Below, piece by piece: positions 1-7,598 of a stretch of 10,280 nucleotides of DNA. The notes under the pieces are model-generated. The model had not been told where the DNA came from, ran no database searches, and saw nothing but the letters and a program-made list of their open reading frames with translations. The first letter of the stretch is position 1, and the number at the start of each line of letters is the position of its first letter. The translations under genes and the position numbers were made by a program. The DNA comes from a virus (taxonomy: Duplodnaviria; Heunggongvirae; Uroviricota; Caudoviricetes). The stretch is taken from IMG/VR virus record IMGVR_UViG_2690316323_000007; one strand, 5' to 3'.

Positions 1-1251
1 GTGCTTACCGATACAAAATTAAAAAACCTCAAGCCGCAGGACAAACTGTACAAGGTCTCCGATCGTGACGGGCTGTATGTAGCTGTGCTTACGTCAGGCA
101 CGGTCTCGTTTCGCTATGACTACCGTATCAACGGTCGCCGCGAAACACTGGTAATCGGGCAGTATGGGCGTGACGGTATCAGCCTGGCAGAAGCGCGGGA
201 AGAACTGATTGCTGCAAAGAAGCTGCTTAAAGCAGGCCAGTCGCCGGCTGCGGCTAAACGTGACGGTATCAAAAAGATTCGTGGTGCCGAGACATTTGCG
301 GTACATACCGACAGTTATATGAAACACGTCATCCTGGCTGAAAGTACCCGCGCAATGAAACAGGCGGTGATCGACCGTGACATACTTCCGGTTCTTGGCA
401 ATAAAATGATGGCTGAAATTACCACATCGATGGTTCGTGATTTGTGTGACCGGATTGTCGAACGCGGTGGCCGGGCAACAGCAGTGCAGGCCAGGGAGAT
501 CATCAGTAGCGTATACCGTCACGCCAATGACCGTGGTCATGGTTTGTTTAATCCTGCGGCTGACATTAAACCTTCGTCTATCGCCATATTTAAACCACGA
601 GAGCGAACACTGACACCAGAAGAAATTGGCCTGTTCTTCCGCACGCTGGATGCCATTGGTGCTATGGGCACTATGAAAATGGCTTTAAAGCTGGTGCTTA
701 TCACTATGGTTCGTAAAGGCGAATTCACCAATGCAACGTGGGATGAAATAGATTTTAAAAAATGGACATGGACAATTCCTTCAGACCGCATGAAGGGAAG
801 CCGGACGCACGTTATTTACCTGCCTAAACAGGCACAGGATATATTGGTTGGGTTGCAGATGTGCGCTGGTGGAAGTGAATATCTGGTTCCTGGTCGTTAC
901 AATTTCCGGAAGCCATTATCTAATGCCGCGCTGAACTCTCTGATCGACAGAACGGTGAAAATAATAAATGAAGATGGTGAGCATATTCAGGACTTCACCG
1001 TACACGATATGCGCCGTACAGCAAGTACGTTGTTGCATGAGGCTGGTTATCCTTCAGACTGGATTGAAAAGGCTCTGGCACATGAGCAGAAAGGTGTGCG
1101 CGCCGTATATAACAAAGCGGAATACGCCAGACAGCGCGCCTACATGTTGCAGCAGTGGGCCGATATGATTGATTCCTGGATTGACGGGGAGCATACGGAT
1201 CTGATTCCGTTCTCCCCGTCGAAGTTTGAGAAATGGATGGCGGGGGAATAA
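1..1251 (+). CDS. Tyrosine recombinase / phage integrase, P4-like family (416 aa, GTG start at window position 1; upstream context not visible)
   Basis: N-terminal arm-type DNA-binding region (MLTDTKLKNLKP...DGLYVAV...FRYDYRINGRRETLVIG) and C-terminal catalytic region with H-x-x-R (HDMRRTASTLL) and a candidate catalytic Tyr (VRAVYNKAEY). Stop TAA at 1249-1251. Because the ORF starts at base 1, the true start could lie further upstream. Confidence 0.9.
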   Translation: MLTDTKLKNLKPQDKLYKVSDRDGLYVAVLTSGTVSFRYDYRINGRRETLVIGQYGRDGISLAEAREELIAAKKLLKAGQSPAAAKRDGIKKIRGAETFAVHTDSYMKHVILAESTRAMKQAVIDRDILPVLGNKMMAEITTSMVRDLCDRIVERGGRATAVQAREIISSVYRHANDRGHGLFNPAADIKPSSIAIFKPRERTLTPEEIGLFFRTLDAIGAMGTMKMALKLVLITMVRKGEFTNATWDEIDFKKWTWTIPSDRMKGSRTHVIYLPKQAQDILVGLQMCAGGSEYLVPGRYNFRKPLSNAALNSLIDRTVKIINEDGEHIQDFTVHDMRRTASTLLHEAGYPSDWIEKALAHEQKGVRAVYNKAEYARQRAYMLQQWADMIDSWIDGEHTDLIPFSPSKFEKWMAGE

Positions 1252-1276: not shown

Positions 1277-1282
1277 CCGCCG

Positions 1283-1975
1283 TCAGAAGAACTCTGCTTT
1301 GTCGTTGATGTACTCCGCGTGCGTCTGGATATCACGCAGGCATTTGCTCACACCAACGATGTAGCAGAACATGGTGGTCAGCTCCGCCGCCGCGCCCGAT
1401 ACGTCGTGCCCGTCTTCCTGTAACTGGTTCAGCAGATTCATCAGCAGTGAGTTCTCCGTCAGGCCGAGAACACCAGACGGAGAATGAATCAGGCTACGGT
1501 AGCCGGGCTTCAGCGGGGCGCTGTAGGTTTTGTTCTCTATCTTCATTGCCTGCATCACTGCTGATGCTGTGGCGTTGGCTACCTGGTCGGCAACCATCTT
1601 TATGCGTTCTTCCTGCGGGAGCGAGTTTTTAATGTAACTTCCGGTGCGGCGGATCTGAGGAAGAACCTCACCTGTAACCCATTCAAGAAATCTGAATGCT
1701 CTCGTTCCCTCAGTCATTGCCTCTTTGCAACGCAGAATAAGGATGTAGAGACCTGATTCTGAAACGATGGATAGTTCTTGTATTCCACCAGGGGTCTGTA
1801 TTGAATACAGCCCCTTTTTGTTCCAGCCTTTTTTATCAAGTTTTCTCGCTTGTGTAACATCAATATTCAAAGCATTGCACACATCTTTGGTGACAAACCA
1901 AGGTTCTCCGTCAATCATGAACATACGGATCTGGCAGGATGACTCAAAGGAAAAGATGGAAGGTTTGGTATTCAT
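1283..1975 (-). CDS. Bro-N domain protein (antirepressor-like) with a C-terminal domain that is paralogous to the 85-aa protein at 3359..3616
   Basis: Six-frame ORF 1283..2020 trimmed to the internal ATG (1975..1973 on minus), which has an RBS (AAGGTGA) about 6 nt upstream. The N-terminal half matches the Bro-N pattern (FSFESSCQIRMFMIDGEPWFVTKDVCNALNI...GLYILILRCKEAMTEGTRAFRFLEWVTGEVLPQIRRTG). The C-terminal ~70 aa align with the small protein at 3359..3616. Confidence 0.85.
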   Translation of the reverse strand: MNTKPSIFSFESSCQIRMFMIDGEPWFVTKDVCNALNIDVTQARKLDKKGWNKKGLYSIQTPGGIQELSIVSESGLYILILRCKEAMTEGTRAFRFLEWVTGEVLPQIRRTGSYIKNSLPQEERIKMVADQVANATASAVMQAMKIENKTYSAPLKPGYRSLIHSPSGVLGLTENSLLMNLLNQLQEDGHDVSGAAAELTTMFCYIVGVSKCLRDIQTHAEYINDKAEFF

Positions 1976-2001
1976 GGCGATCACCTTTGTAGTTAGGTTA
2001 A

Positions 2002-2034
2002 TCACCACCGCTGAGACCAATCAGATGGTGGTGA
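2002..2034. promoter_or_regulatory. Inverted repeat TCACCACC-N17-GGTGGTGA in the Bro-N gene upstream region; candidate operator
   Basis: Perfect 8-bp arms at 2002-2009 and 2027-2034, located about 27-60 bp upstream of the Bro-N start codon on the minus strand. Function is inferred from position only. Confidence 0.3.
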
Positions 2035-2162
2035 ACTGTGCAGAGTTGGTCTTACCGGCTACAAAGGAACCCGGCGCACCTTTCGGTGCCCCCACACAGC
2101 CCACCATAGAATAGGTGCGCTTTACACATAAAAAAACCGCTTATGCGGCATATGTGCCTCTG

Positions 2163-2216
2163 TAGTAATCCGGGAGACCAATCCCGGCACTGGATTTTGC
2201 CAGTGCCCGATTACTA
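2163..2216. other. Nested stem-loop element in the divergent intergenic region (candidate RNA structure or protein-binding site)
   Basis: Inner stem CCGGCACTGG (2184-2193) / CCAGTGCC(G) (2200-2208) with loop ATTTTG; outer arms TAGTAATC (2163-2170) / GATTACTA (2209-2216). The 9-mer GAGACCAAT occurs both at 2175-2183 inside this element and at 2013-2021. No flanking U-tract, so it is not a classical terminator. Confidence 0.35.
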
Positions 2217-2335
2217 TGGCACAAGAGGAGTGCGATGTAAATTTACCGCAAAGGTAATAATAAATGCATAACTCACGTTATTTCAACCCTATGTGGTTTG
2301 ATTGATCCCATTTCAGAAAATACCTGCCTATTTTT

Positions 2336-2365
2336 TTGCCAGTATGCGTATACTTTCGATAGAAT
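2336..2365 (+). promoter_or_regulatory. Candidate sigma70 promoter for the two-gene operon (TTGCCA-18 nt-TAGAAT)
   Basis: -35-like TTGCCA at 2336-2341 and -10-like TAGAAT at 2360-2365 with an 18-nt spacer, about 55 bp upstream of the ATG at 2419. Confidence 0.45.
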
Positions 2366-2418
2366 GTTTACCCTAGAGGTAGTTGGGGGGGCCCGTGAAC
2401 ACGAAGAGAGCTACAGTA

Positions 2419-2838
2419 ATGCAGCATTTGAGGAAATCAGAAAAAAATAAAGACCATGAAATATTGAGTAAGGCCATTGTTCGGGCTTCCAATAATACTG
2501 TTATACCTCATGCTGAAGAGACTGGACAGAAATTTCTTATTCGGTATTTCACTGAAAATAGTGCAGTTGAGGAGATTTTAAAACATCAGGGAGGGGAATT
2601 TAAATGTGGAAAACTGGCAGATTATGTTCGTCGTGAAACGTCTGAACAAGAAGTATATTATGCTGATATTAATCATAAGTCAGGTGTGAAAATTGTAATA
2701 GGCTATTACACAACTCCCAAAAATGTTATGCATGAGGTCCCAAAGATGTCCGTCGAGAAATCTCATGCAATCTCGCGCAGGATGTTTGCACGCACTGCCG
2801 AAGATATGGCTCAGGAGCTCTACGACGATGCTGAATAA
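2419..2838 (+). CDS. Hypothetical protein (139 aa), first gene of a translationally coupled pair; candidate antitoxin/partner of the downstream gene
   Basis: ORF 2383..2838; start assigned to ATG 2419, which has an RBS-like AAGAGAG about 9 nt upstream (alternatives: GTG 2395, TTG 2383). No family recognised by eye; acidic C-terminus (ELYDDAE). Its stop TAA (2836-2838) overlaps the downstream start inside the string ATGCTGAATAA. Confidence 0.7.
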   Translation: MQHLRKSEKNKDHEILSKAIVRASNNTVIPHAEETGQKFLIRYFTENSAVEEILKHQGGEFKCGKLADYVRRETSEQEVYYADINHKSGVKIVIGYYTTPKNVMHEVPKMSVEKSHAISRRMFARTAEDMAQELYDDAE

Positions 2839-3334
2839 ATTCCAGGGGTTGGTTCACCCTGGAATTTTTGGGAAGGACCCTGAGCTAATACCTATCAAAA
2901 ACGCGTTCATAGATCACTGGCGCTACGGTCATCATAAGGATTTCGGAAAGGACACTCTGTTTCGGGATCCACCGAAAGAGATGCTGGAATATCACATACG
3001 CCACGTTCACGTAAACATCGGAAACTATACTGACAAGTTTGGTGAGAGCGGTACGGAACAATGCTGGAAAAACTGGGCATCCGGGAAGAAAGACAAGACC
3101 ACCAACAAGCATAAAAAAATACCAACCAGTGATGTGTATGTGATTTATCTTGTAACGTCTGAGCGACATGCGTTTCTTCTGGATTACTGGGATGAGCCAG
3201 CACACAAAAAAGTAGAAATTGACGAACAAAAACAAAAACTTCTTGTCGAGTGTGACAGAATTTTGCGGCTGAAAAATTTAGAATCCATGCCGCGCGATGC
3301 AAGTTTGTGGGACCCGGAATTTTACGACTGTTAA
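2828..3334 (+). CDS. Hypothetical protein (168 aa), second gene of the pair; weak resemblance to YafO-family type II toxins (tentative)
   Basis: ORF 2723..3334 trimmed to ATG 2828, which overlaps the upstream stop by 11 nt. Recalled YafO-like features: FGKD/FGRD-type motifs (IFGKDPE, DFGKDTLFRDPP), HIRHVHVNIGN, and a C-terminal block VYVIYLVTSERHAFLLDYWDEPAHKK. Confidence refers to the CDS call; the family assignment alone is about 0.4. Confidence 0.7.
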   Translation: MLNKFQGLVHPGIFGKDPELIPIKNAFIDHWRYGHHKDFGKDTLFRDPPKEMLEYHIRHVHVNIGNYTDKFGESGTEQCWKNWASGKKDKTTNKHKKIPTSDVYVIYLVTSERHAFLLDYWDEPAHKKVEIDEQKQKLLVECDRILRLKNLESMPRDASLWDPEFYDC

Positions 3335-3335
3335 T

Positions 3336-3360
3336 GGCCGCTCTTGCGGCCTTTAAATTT
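3336..3360 (+). terminator. Candidate rho-independent terminator after the two-gene operon (GGCCGC-tctt-GCGGCC followed by TTTAAATTT)
   Basis: Perfect 6-bp GC stem (3336-3341 / 3346-3351) with a 4-nt loop and a T-rich tail, sitting between the convergent stop codons at 3334 and 3359. Confidence 0.45.
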
Positions 3361-3616
3361 ACCGGGTTTGTTTTCGTAATTGTTCGGCACAATAGTCGAG
3401 ATGTGTTTGCAGATCCCGCATAGACATCTGTGAGCTGGTGACGTAGTTAATCAGTGCAGTCAGTTCGGCAAGTGGGCCATCGACATTAAATCCATCCTTA
3501 TCGAGATCCCGGAGTAATTTCATCAAGTGCGATCCCTCCACCAGTGACCTGACGCCTCCCGGCGTGTGAATCCTTTCGGTAAATCCGTCTTCCAGTGGAT
3601 AGTGATACTGCTGCAT
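3359..3616 (-). CDS. Small protein (85 aa), stand-alone paralog of the Bro-N protein C-terminal domain; predicted SOS-regulated
   Basis: ORF 3359..3634 trimmed to the ATG at 3616 (MQQYHYP...), which has an RBS GGAGAAG about 7 nt upstream; the ATG at 3634 lies inside that RBS. Shares about 40% identity by eye with residues ~160-231 of the 1283..1975 protein (IH[ST]P.GV..L.E.S.LM.LL..L..DG..V.G..AELT...Y......RD[IL]QTH). A LexA box sits 20 bp upstream. Confidence 0.7.
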   Translation of the reverse strand: MQQYHYPLEDGFTERIHTPGGVRSLVEGSHLMKLLRDLDKDGFNVDGPLAELTALINYVTSSQMSMRDLQTHLDYCAEQLRKQTR

Positions 3617-3635
3617 CTTATCTTCTCCATGCAAT

Positions 3636-3655
3636 AACTGTATATTTATACAGTA
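3636..3655. promoter_or_regulatory. LexA (SOS) box: AACTGTATATTTATACAGTA
   Basis: Matches the E. coli LexA consensus TACTGTATATATATACAGTA at 18 of 20 positions, with both CTGT and ACAG half-sites intact and 8-bp spacing. Lies immediately upstream of the minus-strand small gene (start 3616) and within the divergent region shared with the tail fiber gene. Confidence 0.75.
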
Positions 3656-3691
3656 TCAAATAATTTGTTTGCTATCCAGCACGTTTTGCAA

Positions 3692-3758
3692 ATTACCTGA
3701 AAGGTAATATCTGTTCGTATTCACACCCTTTCTATCCATATGTGGTTTTTCAGGTAAT
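3692..3758. promoter_or_regulatory. Cluster of GGTAAT half-sites upstream of the tail fiber gene (palindrome ATTACC-tgaaa-GGTAAT plus a further AGGTAATA copy)
   Basis: Palindrome at 3692-3708; AGGTAATA repeated at 3702-3709 and 3752-3759; TACCTGAAA (3694-3702) is the reverse complement of TTTCAGGTA (3748-3756). No good sigma70 -35/-10 pair is apparent for the tail fiber gene. Confidence 0.35.
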
Positions 3759-3811
3759 AGAATAACCAGATATGCGGCGCAACGGGTGCTGCGACTATCT
3801 GGAGATTTAAC

Positions 3812-6787
3812 ATGACGGTCTCAACCGAAGTTGACCACAACGAATACACAGGTAACGGCGTTACGACATCATTTCCGTATACCTTTAGGGTTTTCAAGGA
3901 ATCTGATCTGGCAGTACAGGTGGTTGACCTTGACGAAAATATCGCTGTGCTGGCTCTTGATACTGATTACACTGTCACTGGGGCTGGTGGATATAATGGC
4001 GGTAATGTAATTCTGTCGAAGGCGTTAGCTAACGGTTATCAGATTTCTATATCACGAGAGCTACCGGTTACGCAGGAAACTGATCTGCGAAATCAGGGAA
4101 AGTTTTTCGCTGAGGTGCATGAAGACGCGTTAGATAAGCTGACGATGCTGATACAGCAAGTCCGCAGTTGGTTTAGCCTGGCGCTGCGCAAACCATCATT
4201 TGTGGCAAACTATTACGATGCTTTGAATAATTACATCCGCAATTTGCGCGATCCTTCCAAGCCTCAAGATGCAGCTACAAAGAATTATGTTGATAATATT
4301 GTTAATGTGAATATTAACAGGACATTACGGGTTCCAGATAATTTTATTGAACCACTTCCTCCAGTTCATTTACTGGAAGAAACTGTCATTGGTATCGTCA
4401 ATGGTAAACCTATAGGTGTACCTGTGCCTTCTGGCAGTGCCGCAGATGTTCTTCTGCAATTATCTAGCGCAGGAGAAGGAAAAGGAGATGCATTAATTGG
4501 TGTAAGGCAGCCATTTGCCGGGGCTGTAACTATAACTCAGCATGAAAACAATGCTCTTTTCTTAAATGTAAAACAATTCGGAGCAATTGGGGATGGGAAA
4601 TATCATCCATTATCTGAGAGGTTTTCTTCAATTTCTGAAGCAAAATCCTTATATCCTTTTGTTGACTCATTATCTCAGTCAATAGACTGGGCCGCGTGGC
4701 AAGCTGCCATTAACACAGGAAAGGTTATTTATGGTACTGATAATGCGTATGTAATAACGGATACGTTAACACCTGTTTCTGGTGGTGGGATAATTGGTCT
4801 TGGTGTGGGCAAATGGGTCTCTGGATATACTGCAACATTTGCTCCTGATATTACCACAGGGACCACATTCCTGATGTACGGTGTAGGAAATAAAAAATAT
4901 ACTGTAGATTGTGTTTCTAATATGGATGTTAGTGGTGGTGTGGTTTCTAATCCATCTTCCGAAGACCCGTATACAACAACGGCACCTGCGTCATCATATG
5001 ATTTATTGGATTTTACTAACGGTGATGCTAATGGGGCTACAAGAGCCACGCTTAAACCATTCTCTGCCGCAATATTGATGCCAGAGACAGGATGTGTTCG
5101 CCTTGAGAACTTTCGTATTGTTCCATATTTCAATGGGCTGGATGGTTATAAAGACATTGCAAATACCGGTCTTGGCGATGAGTGGGATGTAGGTATTTGG
5201 TCACGTGCGTCTTTTGGCAATGAATACCGCAATTTGCAGGTGGTTGGATACTGGCGCAAGACGGCACTTTTAAAAACGAACATTCCTGTATCTGGCACGC
5301 TGGCCGCTCAGGGCGAGGATGAAAACTATTATCACTGTAGATTCCAGGGATTCAAGGGTGTTTCGATCCGCGCCCATGATGTATTCCGAATTACAGCGGT
5401 AACGTCCAGCACTATCGAAATCCCATGGTCATCAAGCCACACCTTCGAAACGTCCGGGGTTTTAAGATCGGGAGGCAGGAATTTCACTTATTCAGGATTA
5501 TCCGTATCCGGTGATAAGTTAGTATTTACTGGAGTGTCTAACGCTTCTGAGGCAACAGTAGGTTCTACTATACGGCGAAATGACATAGATAACTTTGGTA
5601 TGGCGGGAACGCAATTTTTCGATTGCTACATTACCAGCCTGTATCACCACACACATCTGCTTGCCACATCGCAATACCTGTCTCAGCCATTCAGCCGGCC
5701 ATCAGAGTGTATGGAGGTTTCAGGGGAACCAGTTCGCGGTGTACAGGTACATGCAGGAACCATTCAGGGATGGGATGATGTTCTTATTCATCTGCATGAC
5801 TGTGGAAATATGAACTTTTACAGTACATATTTCGAAAGCCAGCCAGCATATGTAACTATAAATGGTGGTAATGCTATTGGTTATGGAGCACGTATGATAG
5901 CTTCCAGGCAATCAACAAGCTCATTACCATATGCAGCAGGGAATACTCGAGTGCTTAGAATGGTCGGGTGCTCTGAAGGCAATGGCGTTGACTGGGGTCC
6001 TGTATTTAACAACTATACAGGAGGAAGATATAATTCTGGAGACGGTGTATTTAACCCCCGCGATGCATTTGTAGACCATAAATCTCTTCCTGAGCAGTCA
6101 GGAGGTGAGTCAAGACTCGTATCACAAAAAGGAAATGCCAGAGTAGTATGTGGTGTTGGTAAAACTGTACTGCTTGGACCAACTTCAGGAGATTGTAATT
6201 TACAGAGTAATACTGGAAGTTTAAATATTAGAAGTGGGATAAGAGTAAGAATCGGTCACGCTGATGGAACAGACTGGTGGTTGGCAGATGCTAATAAAAT
6301 AGCTCCTGTTGATGATAATGTTAAAGCTATTGGACAGCCATCAAACAGATGCTCTGTTATCTATGCAGGAACCGGGTCAATCAATACGTCAGATGAAACT
6401 CTTAAAACAAGATATGATATTCTTAATGCAGAGCGTGATGCCGCTATTGAAATAAAGTCAGTCATCTATAAATTTAAATTTAATGACTCAATTAATCACA
6501 AAGGAATTGAGTCGTCCAGGTATCATTTTGGCGTTGGCGCTCAAACCGTAGGGGATATTCTTAGAAAGCATGGTTTAAACCCTGAGCAATATGCTTTTTG
6601 GTGTTACGATGAATGGCCTGACGTATGGGATGAAGAGGTGATAACTGAAGAGAGCACAGATCCTGATACAGGTGAGAAAATTTATTCTCAATATAAAACA
6701 GGAGATATGATTCTTGTAAAAAAAGCAGGAGGACGCTACGGAATTCGTTATGACGAATTAGCCATGTTTATATTAATGTCAATGTAA
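3812..6787 (+). CDS. Tail fiber / tailspike protein (991 aa) with T7 gp17-like N-terminal adaptor, central pectate-lyase-like beta-helix (putative depolymerase) and C-terminal intramolecular chaperone (peptidase S74-like) domain
   Basis: ATG 3812 with GGAG 7 nt upstream. N-terminus (YTGNGVTTSFPYTFRVFKESDLAVQVVD...DYTVTG) resembles podovirus tail fiber N-terminal domains. Central region has the beta-helix start motif (NVKQFGAIGDGK...DWAAWQAAINTGK). C-terminal ~130 aa (SDETLKTRYDILNAERDAAIEIKSVIYKF...YHFGVGAQTVGDILRKHGL) resembles the self-cleaving chaperone of endosialidase-type tailspikes. Confidence 0.85.
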   Translation: MTVSTEVDHNEYTGNGVTTSFPYTFRVFKESDLAVQVVDLDENIAVLALDTDYTVTGAGGYNGGNVILSKALANGYQISISRELPVTQETDLRNQGKFFAEVHEDALDKLTMLIQQVRSWFSLALRKPSFVANYYDALNNYIRNLRDPSKPQDAATKNYVDNIVNVNINRTLRVPDNFIEPLPPVHLLEETVIGIVNGKPIGVPVPSGSAADVLLQLSSAGEGKGDALIGVRQPFAGAVTITQHENNALFLNVKQFGAIGDGKYHPLSERFSSISEAKSLYPFVDSLSQSIDWAAWQAAINTGKVIYGTDNAYVITDTLTPVSGGGIIGLGVGKWVSGYTATFAPDITTGTTFLMYGVGNKKYTVDCVSNMDVSGGVVSNPSSEDPYTTTAPASSYDLLDFTNGDANGATRATLKPFSAAILMPETGCVRLENFRIVPYFNGLDGYKDIANTGLGDEWDVGIWSRASFGNEYRNLQVVGYWRKTALLKTNIPVSGTLAAQGEDENYYHCRFQGFKGVSIRAHDVFRITAVTSSTIEIPWSSSHTFETSGVLRSGGRNFTYSGLSVSGDKLVFTGVSNASEATVGSTIRRNDIDNFGMAGTQFFDCYITSLYHHTHLLATSQYLSQPFSRPSECMEVSGEPVRGVQVHAGTIQGWDDVLIHLHDCGNMNFYSTYFESQPAYVTINGGNAIGYGARMIASRQSTSSLPYAAGNTRVLRMVGCSEGNGVDWGPVFNNYTGGRYNSGDGVFNPRDAFVDHKSLPEQSGGESRLVSQKGNARVVCGVGKTVLLGPTSGDCNLQSNTGSLNIRSGIRVRIGHADGTDWWLADANKIAPVDDNVKAIGQPSNRCSVIYAGTGSINTSDETLKTRYDILNAERDAAIEIKSVIYKFKFNDSINHKGIESSRYHFGVGAQTVGDILRKHGLNPEQYAFWCYDEWPDVWDEEVITEESTDPDTGEKIYSQYKTGDMILVKKAGGRYGIRYDELAMFILMSM

Positions 6788-6797
6788 TAATAAATGC

Positions 6798-6837
6798 AAT
6801 AACCCCGAATAAAACAGCGGGGTTATTGTTATTATAA
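6798..6837 (+). terminator. Rho-independent terminator downstream of the tail fiber gene
   Basis: 10-bp stem AATAACCCCG (6798-6807) / CGGGGTTATT (6818-6827) with a 10-nt loop, followed by the T-rich stretch GTTATTATAAT. Confidence 0.6.
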
Positions 6838-7080
6838 TAATGATCTTAACTTCTTAAATGATATTTATATGCACTTGGATTATTAAATCTATATTATGCC
6901 TGTTATTTATGTGTTCTGTTATATGTTTTGCAGGCACTGTTGGCAGCATTAAAGGAAATTGTATTTATGGCGAAATAGCTGGTATCGTGTTTTTATTGTG
7001 CGTAAAAATAACAGACTGCATATATTATTGTATAAAGTTTTGGAAATGAAAACACTCAAACTTACCGCTGTGGATATGTT

Positions 7081-7109
7081 TTGACCATCGCGAATTGGAT
7101 TGGTAATAT
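7081..7109 (+). promoter_or_regulatory. Strong sigma70-like promoter upstream of the lysis cassette (TTGACC-17 nt-TGgTAATAT, extended -10)
   Basis: -35 TTGACC at 7081-7086, 17-nt spacer, -10 TAATAT at 7104-7109 preceded by TG at 7101-7102. Located about 85 bp upstream of the first lysis gene. Confidence 0.55.
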
Positions 7110-7120
7110 TGGGTAACAAA

Positions 7121-7136
7121 AAACCATAAATGGTTT
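7121..7136. promoter_or_regulatory. Perfect 16-bp palindrome AAACCATAAATGGTTT just downstream of the predicted transcription start; candidate operator
   Basis: Arms AAACCAT (7121-7127) and ATGGTTT (7130-7136), separated by AA. Sits between the promoter -10 and the RBS AGGAGG (7161-7166). Confidence 0.4.
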
Positions 7137-7193
7137 ATCATGCGTAATGCTTTACTGTTCAGGAGGTAGTTATGCATATAAACGGTGGAAAAC

Positions 7194-7598
7194 ATGTCAG
7201 CTCAACTAACCAGTGAAACTTTAAATCAGTGGCTTAGCATGAGTTCTTTGGCGGCAGTGATAGCAGGAGTTCCTCCTGAGGTTGCTTTGGGGTCTTTGGC
7301 TGGGGCGGTGATTTTTGTTACCTCTGCGGTAGAGTATCCCATTCGTCGTCGCGTGCTCTTGTCGATGCTTAGCTTTCTCTGCGGACTTCTATTCTACAAA
7401 CCAGCAGCATCAATTCTTATCGGCATAGCCAGCCTGATCCCTACAATCACACAGGATTCTTTCGAGAAAGGGATTGTTTTCTCTGCCGGTGCATTTGTGT
7501 CAGCAATCGTCGCTGTGCGAATTGGGATCTGGCTCTATCACCGTTCCGATAATCCACGCGAGTTAATTCCGGGGAGAAAAGACGATGGTAACTCATGA
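7194..7598 (+). CDS. Holin-like membrane protein (134 aa from ATG 7194; 137 aa if GTG 7185 is used), about 4 predicted transmembrane segments
   Basis: Hydrophobic stretches LAAVIAGVPPEVALGSLAGAVIFV, VLLSMLSFLCGLLFY, ASILIGIASLIPTI and IVFSAGAFVSAIVAVRIGIWLY, with a charged C-terminus. First gene of an overlapping operon with the endolysin. Two in-frame candidate starts (GTG 7185, ATG 7194). Confidence 0.65.
   Translation: MSAQLTSETLNQWLSMSSLAAVIAGVPPEVALGSLAGAVIFVTSAVEYPIRRRVLLSMLSFLCGLLFYKPAASILIGIASLIPTITQDSFEKGIVFSAGAFVSAIVAVRIGIWLYHRSDNPRELIPGRKDDGNS

Follow-up and report, generated by a model that had tools for sequence, protein, structure and literature searches.

Results

Gene content of the window

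The window, by which we mean the whole 10,280-nucleotide stretch of DNA analysed here, belongs to a tailed-phage (Caudoviricetes) record and was mapped using its list of open reading frames, the sequence itself, the RefSeq annotation of a 99.7%-identical E. coli chromosome and Rfam (Table 1). Two adjacent, co-oriented genes, A and B, with a common promoter-like site and a terminator-like hairpin, lie between a divergent antirepressor operon and a small convergent gene for a Tum-like antirepressor. As a sequence-only reading of this DNA had stated, the two genes overlap by exactly 11 nt (ATGCTGAATAA, 2828-2838, read directly from the sequence) and encode proteins of 139 aa (147 aa in RefSeq) and 168 aa. 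Both are real genes: each belongs to a PHROG family (A, phrog_9503, E 4e-88; B, phrog_1651, E 2e-46; both listed as function unknown), B is intact in a set of complete E. coli genomes, and dN/dS is low.

Table 1 Features of the window and of the A-B locus
Feature	Position	Strand	Remarks
Tyrosine integrase gene	1-1251	+	
BRO-N/Ant antirepressor gene	1283-2020	-	PF02498, phrog_130
C4 antisense RNA	2024-2111	-	Rfam
isrK RNA	2130-2206	-	Rfam
TTACC-N5-GGTAA copy	2243-2257		Just downstream of the -10 of the divergent isrK/C4/ant promoter
Divergent promoter TTGAAA-18-TATTAT	2286..2257	-	isrK/C4/ant operon
Sigma-70-like promoter TTGCCA-18-TAGAAT	2336-2365	+	A-B; 10/12 consensus positions match
Palindrome TTACC-N5-GGTAA, copy TTACCCTAGAGGTAG	2368-2382		Directly after the A-B promoter -10; spans the predicted start site
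Gene A	2395 (GTG) or 2419 (ATG) to 2838	+	
C-terminal module of A, VMHEVPKMSVEKSHAISRRMFARTAEDMAQELYDDAE	2728-2838	+	Residues 104-139 of the 139-aa form; predicted helix
AGGAG Shine-Dalgarno for B	2813-2817	+	Within the 3' end of A; 10 nt upstream of ATG 2828
Gene B	2828-3334	+	
Terminator-like hairpin GGCCGCTCTTGCGGCC (GGCCGC-TCTT-GCGGCC), then T-rich tail TTTAAATTT	3336-3351	+	
Small Tum-like antirepressor gene	3359-3616 (RefSeq start) or -3634	-	phrog_450; phrog_1760 anti-repressor
LexA box CTGTATATTTATACAG	3639-3654		Upstream of the Tum-like gene; near-consensus, read from the sequence
TTACC-N5-GGTAA copy	3693-3707		tum/tailspike intergenic region
Tailspike gene	3812-6787	+	
TTACC-N5-GGTAA copy	7318-7331		Within a holin gene
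Two holins, GH19 endolysin, Rz-like gene	Downstream of tailspike	+	
Host genes yfgI, yfgH	Downstream	-	

Gene A ends at the TAA at 2836-2838. Translation from ATG 2419 yields the 139-aa form, and the RefSeq start at the in-frame GTG 2395 yields 147 aa; the GTG may be the true start, because homologues retain the extra 'NTKR.T.' residues. The promoter-like element is the best plus-strand site in 2000-3820 and the hairpin is the top plus-strand terminator candidate of the region, bearing out the proposal that the pair has expression signals of its own. The two genes had also been called AT-rich, a description that suits A (GC 0.39) better than B (0.43-0.46); the locus is moderately AT-rich, most clearly in A.

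On the left, the C4 and isrK RNAs (Rfam matches RF01695, 78.6 bits, and RF01394, 74.7 bits, in 2024-2206, both exceeding the gathering score) form the leader of the antirepressor operon, which is transcribed divergently from A-B. Related phages consistently keep the BRO-N/Ant gene of this operon next to the A-B pair. On the right, the Tum-like gene, a homologue of the C-terminal Ant domain, converges on B. The LexA box upstream of this gene has the form CTG-N10-CAG with an AT-rich centre, in agreement with the suggestion that a LexA-controlled gene approaches the operon from this side.

Gene B belongs with YafO

RefSeq names the 168-aa B protein 'type II toxin-antitoxin system YafO family toxin', and the label 'unassigned' that the sequence-only reading gave the operon was thus overstated. 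The similarity of B to YafO proposed in that reading is upheld by a RelE/HigB-like fold, by matches of B relatives to PF13957 and by a transitive chain to E. coli YafO. In Pfam, the B of the window does not match PF13957 even at E values up to 10, and NCBIfam gives no match at permissive thresholds. The same Pfam model is matched weakly by 11 of the 15 close relatives of B (best E 1.6e-5) and by 25 of 46 full-length members of the wider family. When the B clade was aligned with the single E. coli YafO sequence, hhalign returned a probability of only 10%. The B-clade profile, which collects only 69 clusters (at 50% identity) among 1.8 billion proteins, reaches an intermediate, P0102, at a library-wide E of 2.5e-4, and P0102 in turn matches E. 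coli YafO at E 9.5e-8, closing the chain from the B clade to YafO. Matches of the B profile in proteins of 700-3000 aa were set aside as probably spurious; one of these, P0078, is an RCC1-type repeat protein.

A joint alignment of the 46 full-length family members together with E. coli YafO contains five invariant residues, F27, G40, H61, Y107 and H126, which are candidates for the active site. The AlphaFold model of B is confident (pLDDT 84.6, pTM 0.82) and predicts a RelE/HigB-like alpha/beta fold, with sequence identities of 9-14% to HigB2 and other RelE/ParE-superfamily proteins. Relative to YafO, B carries an insertion of ~40 residues (62-103) that is modelled at lower confidence. A search of viral folds in BFVD with B gave nothing at E below 0.1, and sequence searches of the PDB with YafO and with the family profile gave no solved structure of a YafO relative, returning a designed repeat protein alone, which we took as a chance match.

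B is under strong purifying selection (dN/dS 0.02-0.12) and is intact in 58 of 5,426 complete E. coli genomes, in every case on the chromosome. Taken with the transitive sequence links, the predicted fold suggests that B is most likely a toxin of the RelE/ParE superfamily, divergent within the YafO family. YafO itself cuts translated mRNA (PMC2814082); whether it strictly requires the ribosome is disputed (PMC11980606).

A conserved, predicted C-terminal helix in gene A co-varies with B

A was earlier said to fit no recognised antitoxin family, and this holds: searches of Pfam, NCBIfam and PADLOC gave no match. No PF02604 (Phd/YefM) match was found in A or in 10 diverse partner proteins, nor did Pfam detect HTH, RHH, Phd or AbrB domains in any of these proteins; the scan of the ten partners yielded sub-threshold noise only (RHH_8, E 0.03; HicA, E 0.12). 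A is annotated 'hypothetical' in every record seen. The AF2 model of A has a pLDDT of 46, a confidence too low to judge the fold, and residues 112-138 form its sole helix with raised pLDDT.

This helix falls in the conserved part of the protein. Among 25 homologues of A the last 36 residues are near-invariant (VMxEVPKMSVEKSxAISRRMFARTAEDMAQELYDDAE), whereas the N-terminal parts are of several unrelated types. Domain shuffling was also observed, one N-terminal type occurring with two different C-terminal modules. In the C-terminal third of A, dN/dS is 0.03-0.05, with dS near saturation. Conservation of the terminal [FY]DxxE must be read with the overlap in mind, as the start codon of B partly fixes the last 4-5 residues; the module upstream of this motif is not dual-coded and is conserved at the protein level.

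We examined 49 loci that encode B relatives of 39-100% identity. In all 49, a same-strand upstream ORF overlaps the start of B, by 4, 11 or 14 nt, and its product (from ~65 to 190 aa) ends in [MLI][ST]xxExxx[IL]Sxx[ML]...[FY]DxxE-stop, a helix module of ~33 residues. Conserved co-occurrence, whose absence the sequence-only reading had named as grounds for giving up its proposal, was thus found at 49 of 49 related loci, always with overlapping gene ends. A scan of genome contigs found a single locus, in Serratia.

The C-terminal module of A tracks the divergence of B, and identity in the N-terminal part stays much lower. At B identities of 35-50%, the C-terminal 33 aa are 27% identical and the N-terminal parts 16%; the corresponding values are 55% and 19% at B identities of 50-70%, 74% and 31% at 70-90%, and 96% and 57% above 90%. 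A conserved C-terminus joined to an N-terminus that is swapped is the pattern that fits an antitoxin neutralising its toxin through the C-terminus. Co-variation with B, together with the single C-terminal helix, leads us to regard this helix as a putative toxin-neutralising segment.

The pair in intact phages

The complete 40.6-kb phage EC.W1-9 is 97% identical to the window over the A-B pair. In this phage and in nearly all of 44 viral contigs, the pair sits between the BRO-N/Ant and Tum-like genes, just before the tailspike gene. This part of the genome is an immI-like antirepressor accessory region. In several phages a further pair, a paralogue at ~44% identity, flanks ant on the opposite side, and in one clade the pair lies downstream of ant on the same strand. 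The pair is accessory, as it is missing from most related phages and found in few E. coli genomes. A few relatives occur outside phages, adjoining IS66/AlpA or integrase genes (loci L009, L010 and L031), as would fit an autonomous mobile module.

The window has a different layout. Positions 1 to ~1525 align collinearly with an intact prophage inserted beside guaA, at its integrase end, and the sequence from ~1280 onward matches a viral contig on its immI side at 100% identity; the ~245 bp common to both correspond to the 3' ends of two same-strand ant paralogues. As judged from these alignments, the window is a 9-kb deletion remnant of a prophage. Recombination between the ant paralogues would remove the genes for early functions, replication and morphogenesis, leaving exactly the arrangement of the window. 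The deletion junction in one piece was present in no complete E. coli genome of the collection. The earlier description of the pair as lying between integrase and structural genes holds for this window alone, being a consequence of the deletion, and does not apply to intact phages. Likewise, the 'integrase-proximal cargo slot' proposed for the pair is a deletion artefact, since intact phages carry it in the immI-like region beside the tailspike gene.

A dispersed palindrome at the A-B promoter

The 15-bp palindrome TTACC-N5-GGTAA at the A-B promoter has six strand-matches in the window, compared with 0.04 expected by chance. EC.W1-9 contains 17 sites at no more than one mismatch, 16 of them in intergenic DNA, which makes up 8% of the genome. 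The HTH repressor gene of this phage is flanked by motif sites, two per side, in OL/OR-like regions. At the A-B promoter the motif is kept in almost all related loci, whatever the N-terminal type of A. The palindrome was considered as an operator of A itself and rejected, because the same motif accompanies unrelated A N-termini, is found genome-wide and occurs at the repressor gene. An operator that does not co-vary with the N-terminal type of A probably belongs to the phage repressor, and from the positions of the sites we infer that the palindrome is probably the operator of the prophage HTH repressor.

Expression of A-B is probably repressor-controlled, as the same palindrome lies at the repressor's own control region. 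A repressor operator at the promoter also argues against a simple 'moron' that is expressed constitutively in the lysogen. In the repressor an HTH_3 domain occurs without an S24 peptidase domain, which fits induction by antirepressors. The repressor gene is gone from the remnant, and the pair may therefore be derepressed there unless another prophage supplies the repressor.

Discussion

The features of this locus suggest that A-B is probably a toxin-antitoxin module in which a YafO-family toxin is paired with a member of an undescribed antitoxin family. We propose a type II toxin-antitoxin-like module that would reside in the immI-like region of ~40-kb temperate podophages of enterobacteria. 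By homology to YafO, B would stop translation by cutting mRNA, and A would be its cognate antitoxin, with translation of the two probably coupled through the 11-nt overlap and the B Shine-Dalgarno sequence within A. Residues ~104-139 of A could bind and neutralise B, leaving the N-terminal part as a swappable region. The prophage HTH repressor would silence the pair, allowing its expression upon infection, induction or loss of repressor. Likely roles would include stabilisation of the element, exclusion or abortive infection, this being the least certain step of the model.

The closest known counterpart is E. coli yafN-yafO, in the dinB-yafN-yafO-yafP operon. Transitive links and invariant residues place B in the same toxin family, and the order antitoxin then toxin, reported for the YafO family (PMC11980606), would be that of A-B if A, encoded first, is the antitoxin. 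YafN also ends in an acidic C-terminal helix, as does A, and both pairs have an SOS-linked setting: yafNO is LexA-regulated (PMC2814082), and A-B adjoins a gene with a LexA box. The differences are equally clear. B has 168 aa, including the ~40-residue insertion, versus 132 aa in YafO; relatives of YafN carry a Phd/YefM domain (PF02604), which A lacks; yafN and yafO are 2 nt apart, whereas A and B overlap by 11 nt; and the A-B promoter has a probable phage operator and no LexA box, unlike that of LexA-regulated yafNO. In a stop-anchored register, the C-terminus of E. coli YafN (...EEITRRAEQYLNDMTDDDFNDFKE) shares S, I, [ST], R, R, D and E with A. The resemblance is not significant: family-level comparison of the two C-termini by hhalign gave E values of 0.84 (global) and 0.26 (local), and an anchored permutation test gave z 2.1 (p 0.02). 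We do not claim homology between these C-termini on the basis of ISRR versus ITRR and the terminal E, because the family-level profile comparison does not support it.

B also resembles the mRNA interferase HigB2 of the HigB2/HigA2 pair, a member of the RelE/ParE superfamily (BECR fold), although sequence identity is only 9-14%. By contrast, higBA has the toxin gene first (PMC2814082), the reverse of A-B, and HigA antitoxins contain HTH domains, which are not detectable in A.

Other readings of the locus differ mainly in what the pair is for. Anti-phage defence could be its main function, through abortive infection or superinfection exclusion, with an infecting phage causing release of B and the N-terminus of A perhaps acting as sensor. 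The pair does occupy an accessory region in which related phages keep immunity and exclusion functions, some phages have two paralogous pairs, and the N-terminus of A is swapped rapidly while the putative neutralising module is retained; moreover, RelE/ParE-superfamily toxins are known defence effectors (PMC11980606). However, A, B and two neighbouring genes have no match in PADLOC-DB 2.0 at E values up to 1, and the probable repressor operator at the promoter would keep the pair low in a lysogen, leading us to consider defence unlikely as the main function. A more specific proposal, which we regard as quite unlikely, makes A a sensor-antitoxin. Its fast-swapping N-terminus would detect a signal from phage or host, for example a superinfecting phage's protein or a stage of the neighbouring antirepressor switch, upon which the constant C-terminal helix would let go of the YafO-like nuclease, giving trigger-specific abortive infection in a prophage immunity region by a module wired to the dispersed repressor operators.

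The same operator could instead point to the lytic cycle, in which A-B would be derepressed with the early genes, B would cut host mRNA, thereby shutting down translation in the host or tuning the switch, and A would limit the damage; the pair would then serve phage development and not addiction or defence. That the operator overlaps the start site, and that the same palindrome occurs at OL/OR-like regions and at many transcription-unit boundaries, would suit such a function, as would the tight linkage to antirepressor genes, which in one clade extends to a position downstream of ant on the same strand. Nevertheless, the pair is found outside phages too, near IS66/AlpA or integrase genes, is intact in a remnant incapable of lytic growth and, being accessory, is missing from most related phages (58 of 5,426 E. 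coli genomes), and a lytic function is in our judgment unlikely. Finally, B could be a RelE-fold protein without nuclease activity, with A and B as non-toxic accessory proteins that travel together. The failure of the window's B to match the Pfam YafO model and the lower model confidence of its ~40-residue insertion (62-103) would fit such a protein. By contrast, B keeps the residues that are invariant across a family including bona fide YafO, purifying selection is strong, and none of the 49 loci departs from the overlap or from the co-varying partner module, making a non-toxic pair very unlikely.

YafO is among the least understood E. coli toxins. In a 2011 survey the YafO family was small, lay on chromosomes and had Phd-type and unclassified antitoxins as partners; the survey placed no member of the superfamily on a phage or a plasmid (PMC3141249). 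The present locus would represent a branch of YafO that is carried by phages and pairs with another, undescribed family, the conserved element being the short C-terminal helix of the partner. Set against the published surveys, a phage-encoded YafO branch whose partner is not of the Phd type is novel, although toxins and antitoxins are well known to mix and the toxin is already named in RefSeq; we found no description of the A-B pair in the literature on YafO-like toxins, on YafO in prophages or phage defence, or on toxin-antitoxin systems of Uetakevirus. The C-terminal module of A is a compact candidate for a neutralisation peptide, and the natural swaps upstream of it bear on the role of the antitoxin N-terminus. 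For annotation, B is missed by current Pfam and NCBIfam models and A is carried as 'hypothetical'.

More broadly, the surroundings of the pair have known parallels. The immI locus of P1 and P7 (c4 - icd - ant) and the isrK locus of Salmonella Gifsy-1 resemble the neighbouring C4/isrK/antirepressor operon rather than A-B. In P1 the primary repressor, C1, controls the immI promoter by way of one operator among many that are dispersed, and the scattered TTACC-N5-GGTAA sites resemble this arrangement. P1 immI differs in having no YafO-like pair, and the operator found here is palindromic, with its binding protein deduced from site positions. The dispersed palindromic operator offers a separate lead on regulation in this group of prophages.

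Origin of the window and its antirepressor region

The window is an approximately 9-kb remnant of a prophage. This remnant appears to have arisen by recombination between 245-bp 3′ ends common to two antirepressor paralogues: an AntA/B-type gene adjoining int, and a second one, of the BRO-N type, which lies in immI, the antirepressor region beside the tailspike gene. The remnant junction was found in one piece in none of 5,426 complete Escherichia coli genomes. The order of C4 antisense RNA, isrK RNA and antirepressor gene resembles that of P1/P7 immI and likewise that of Gifsy-1, here in a podophage.

Positions of features in the window, unless another sequence is named
Feature	Position	Strand	Remark
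Remnant junction	~1280-1525		within 1-2020
C4 antisense RNA (RF01695) and isrK RNA (RF01394), in tandem	2024-2206	minus	upstream of BRO-N antirepressor gene
15-bp palindrome TTACC-N5-GGTAA	2243-2257, 2368-2382, 3693-3707, 7318-7331		
Small Tum-like antirepressor gene and LexA box	3359-3654	minus	
Hydrophobic ORF, 63 aa	6858-7049		within low-GC stretch 6400-7200
Second A-B pair in EC.W1-9	L055 4154-4955 = EC.W1-9 26008-26809		

A possible dispersed operator network and possible SOS induction

Nearly all transcription-unit boundaries in this phage group are marked by the 15-bp palindrome. In the related complete phage EC.W1-9, 16 of its 17 sites are intergenic, compared with an intergenic share of only 8% of the genome, and copies flank the HTH repressor gene on both sides. 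These sites look like a dispersed operator network of a repressor that has no self-cleavage (S24) domain. The adjoining Ant protein has a C-terminal domain homologous to the Tum-like antirepressor (phrog_450), whose gene carries a near-consensus LexA box. Together, this box and the absence of an S24 domain from the repressor suggest SOS induction via an antirepressor.

A second pair and the make-up of the partner proteins

Several phages (L013, L017, L021, L024 and L055) carry a second, paralogous A-B pair, whose second protein is about 31-44% identical to B. This pair lies on the far side of the ant gene, downstream and on the same strand, and is preceded by its own copy of the palindrome.

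P0033 and the partner protein of locus L028 have a common N-terminal domain type (MxRTKxAGPNLERAK...) and different C-terminal modules, of the YDDAE and FDGPE types. Because one N-terminal type is thus joined to two C-terminal modules, partner proteins arise through domain shuffling.

The B-family profile also matches six proteins of 700-3000 aa (P0078, P0084, P0090, P0098, P0106 and P0107), in 3-11 stretches each. These matches look spurious, since P0078, the one of the six that we inspected, is an RCC1-type repeat protein.

Elsewhere in the window, GC content reaches its minimum (0.32-0.38) between the 3′ end of the tailspike gene and the first holin gene.
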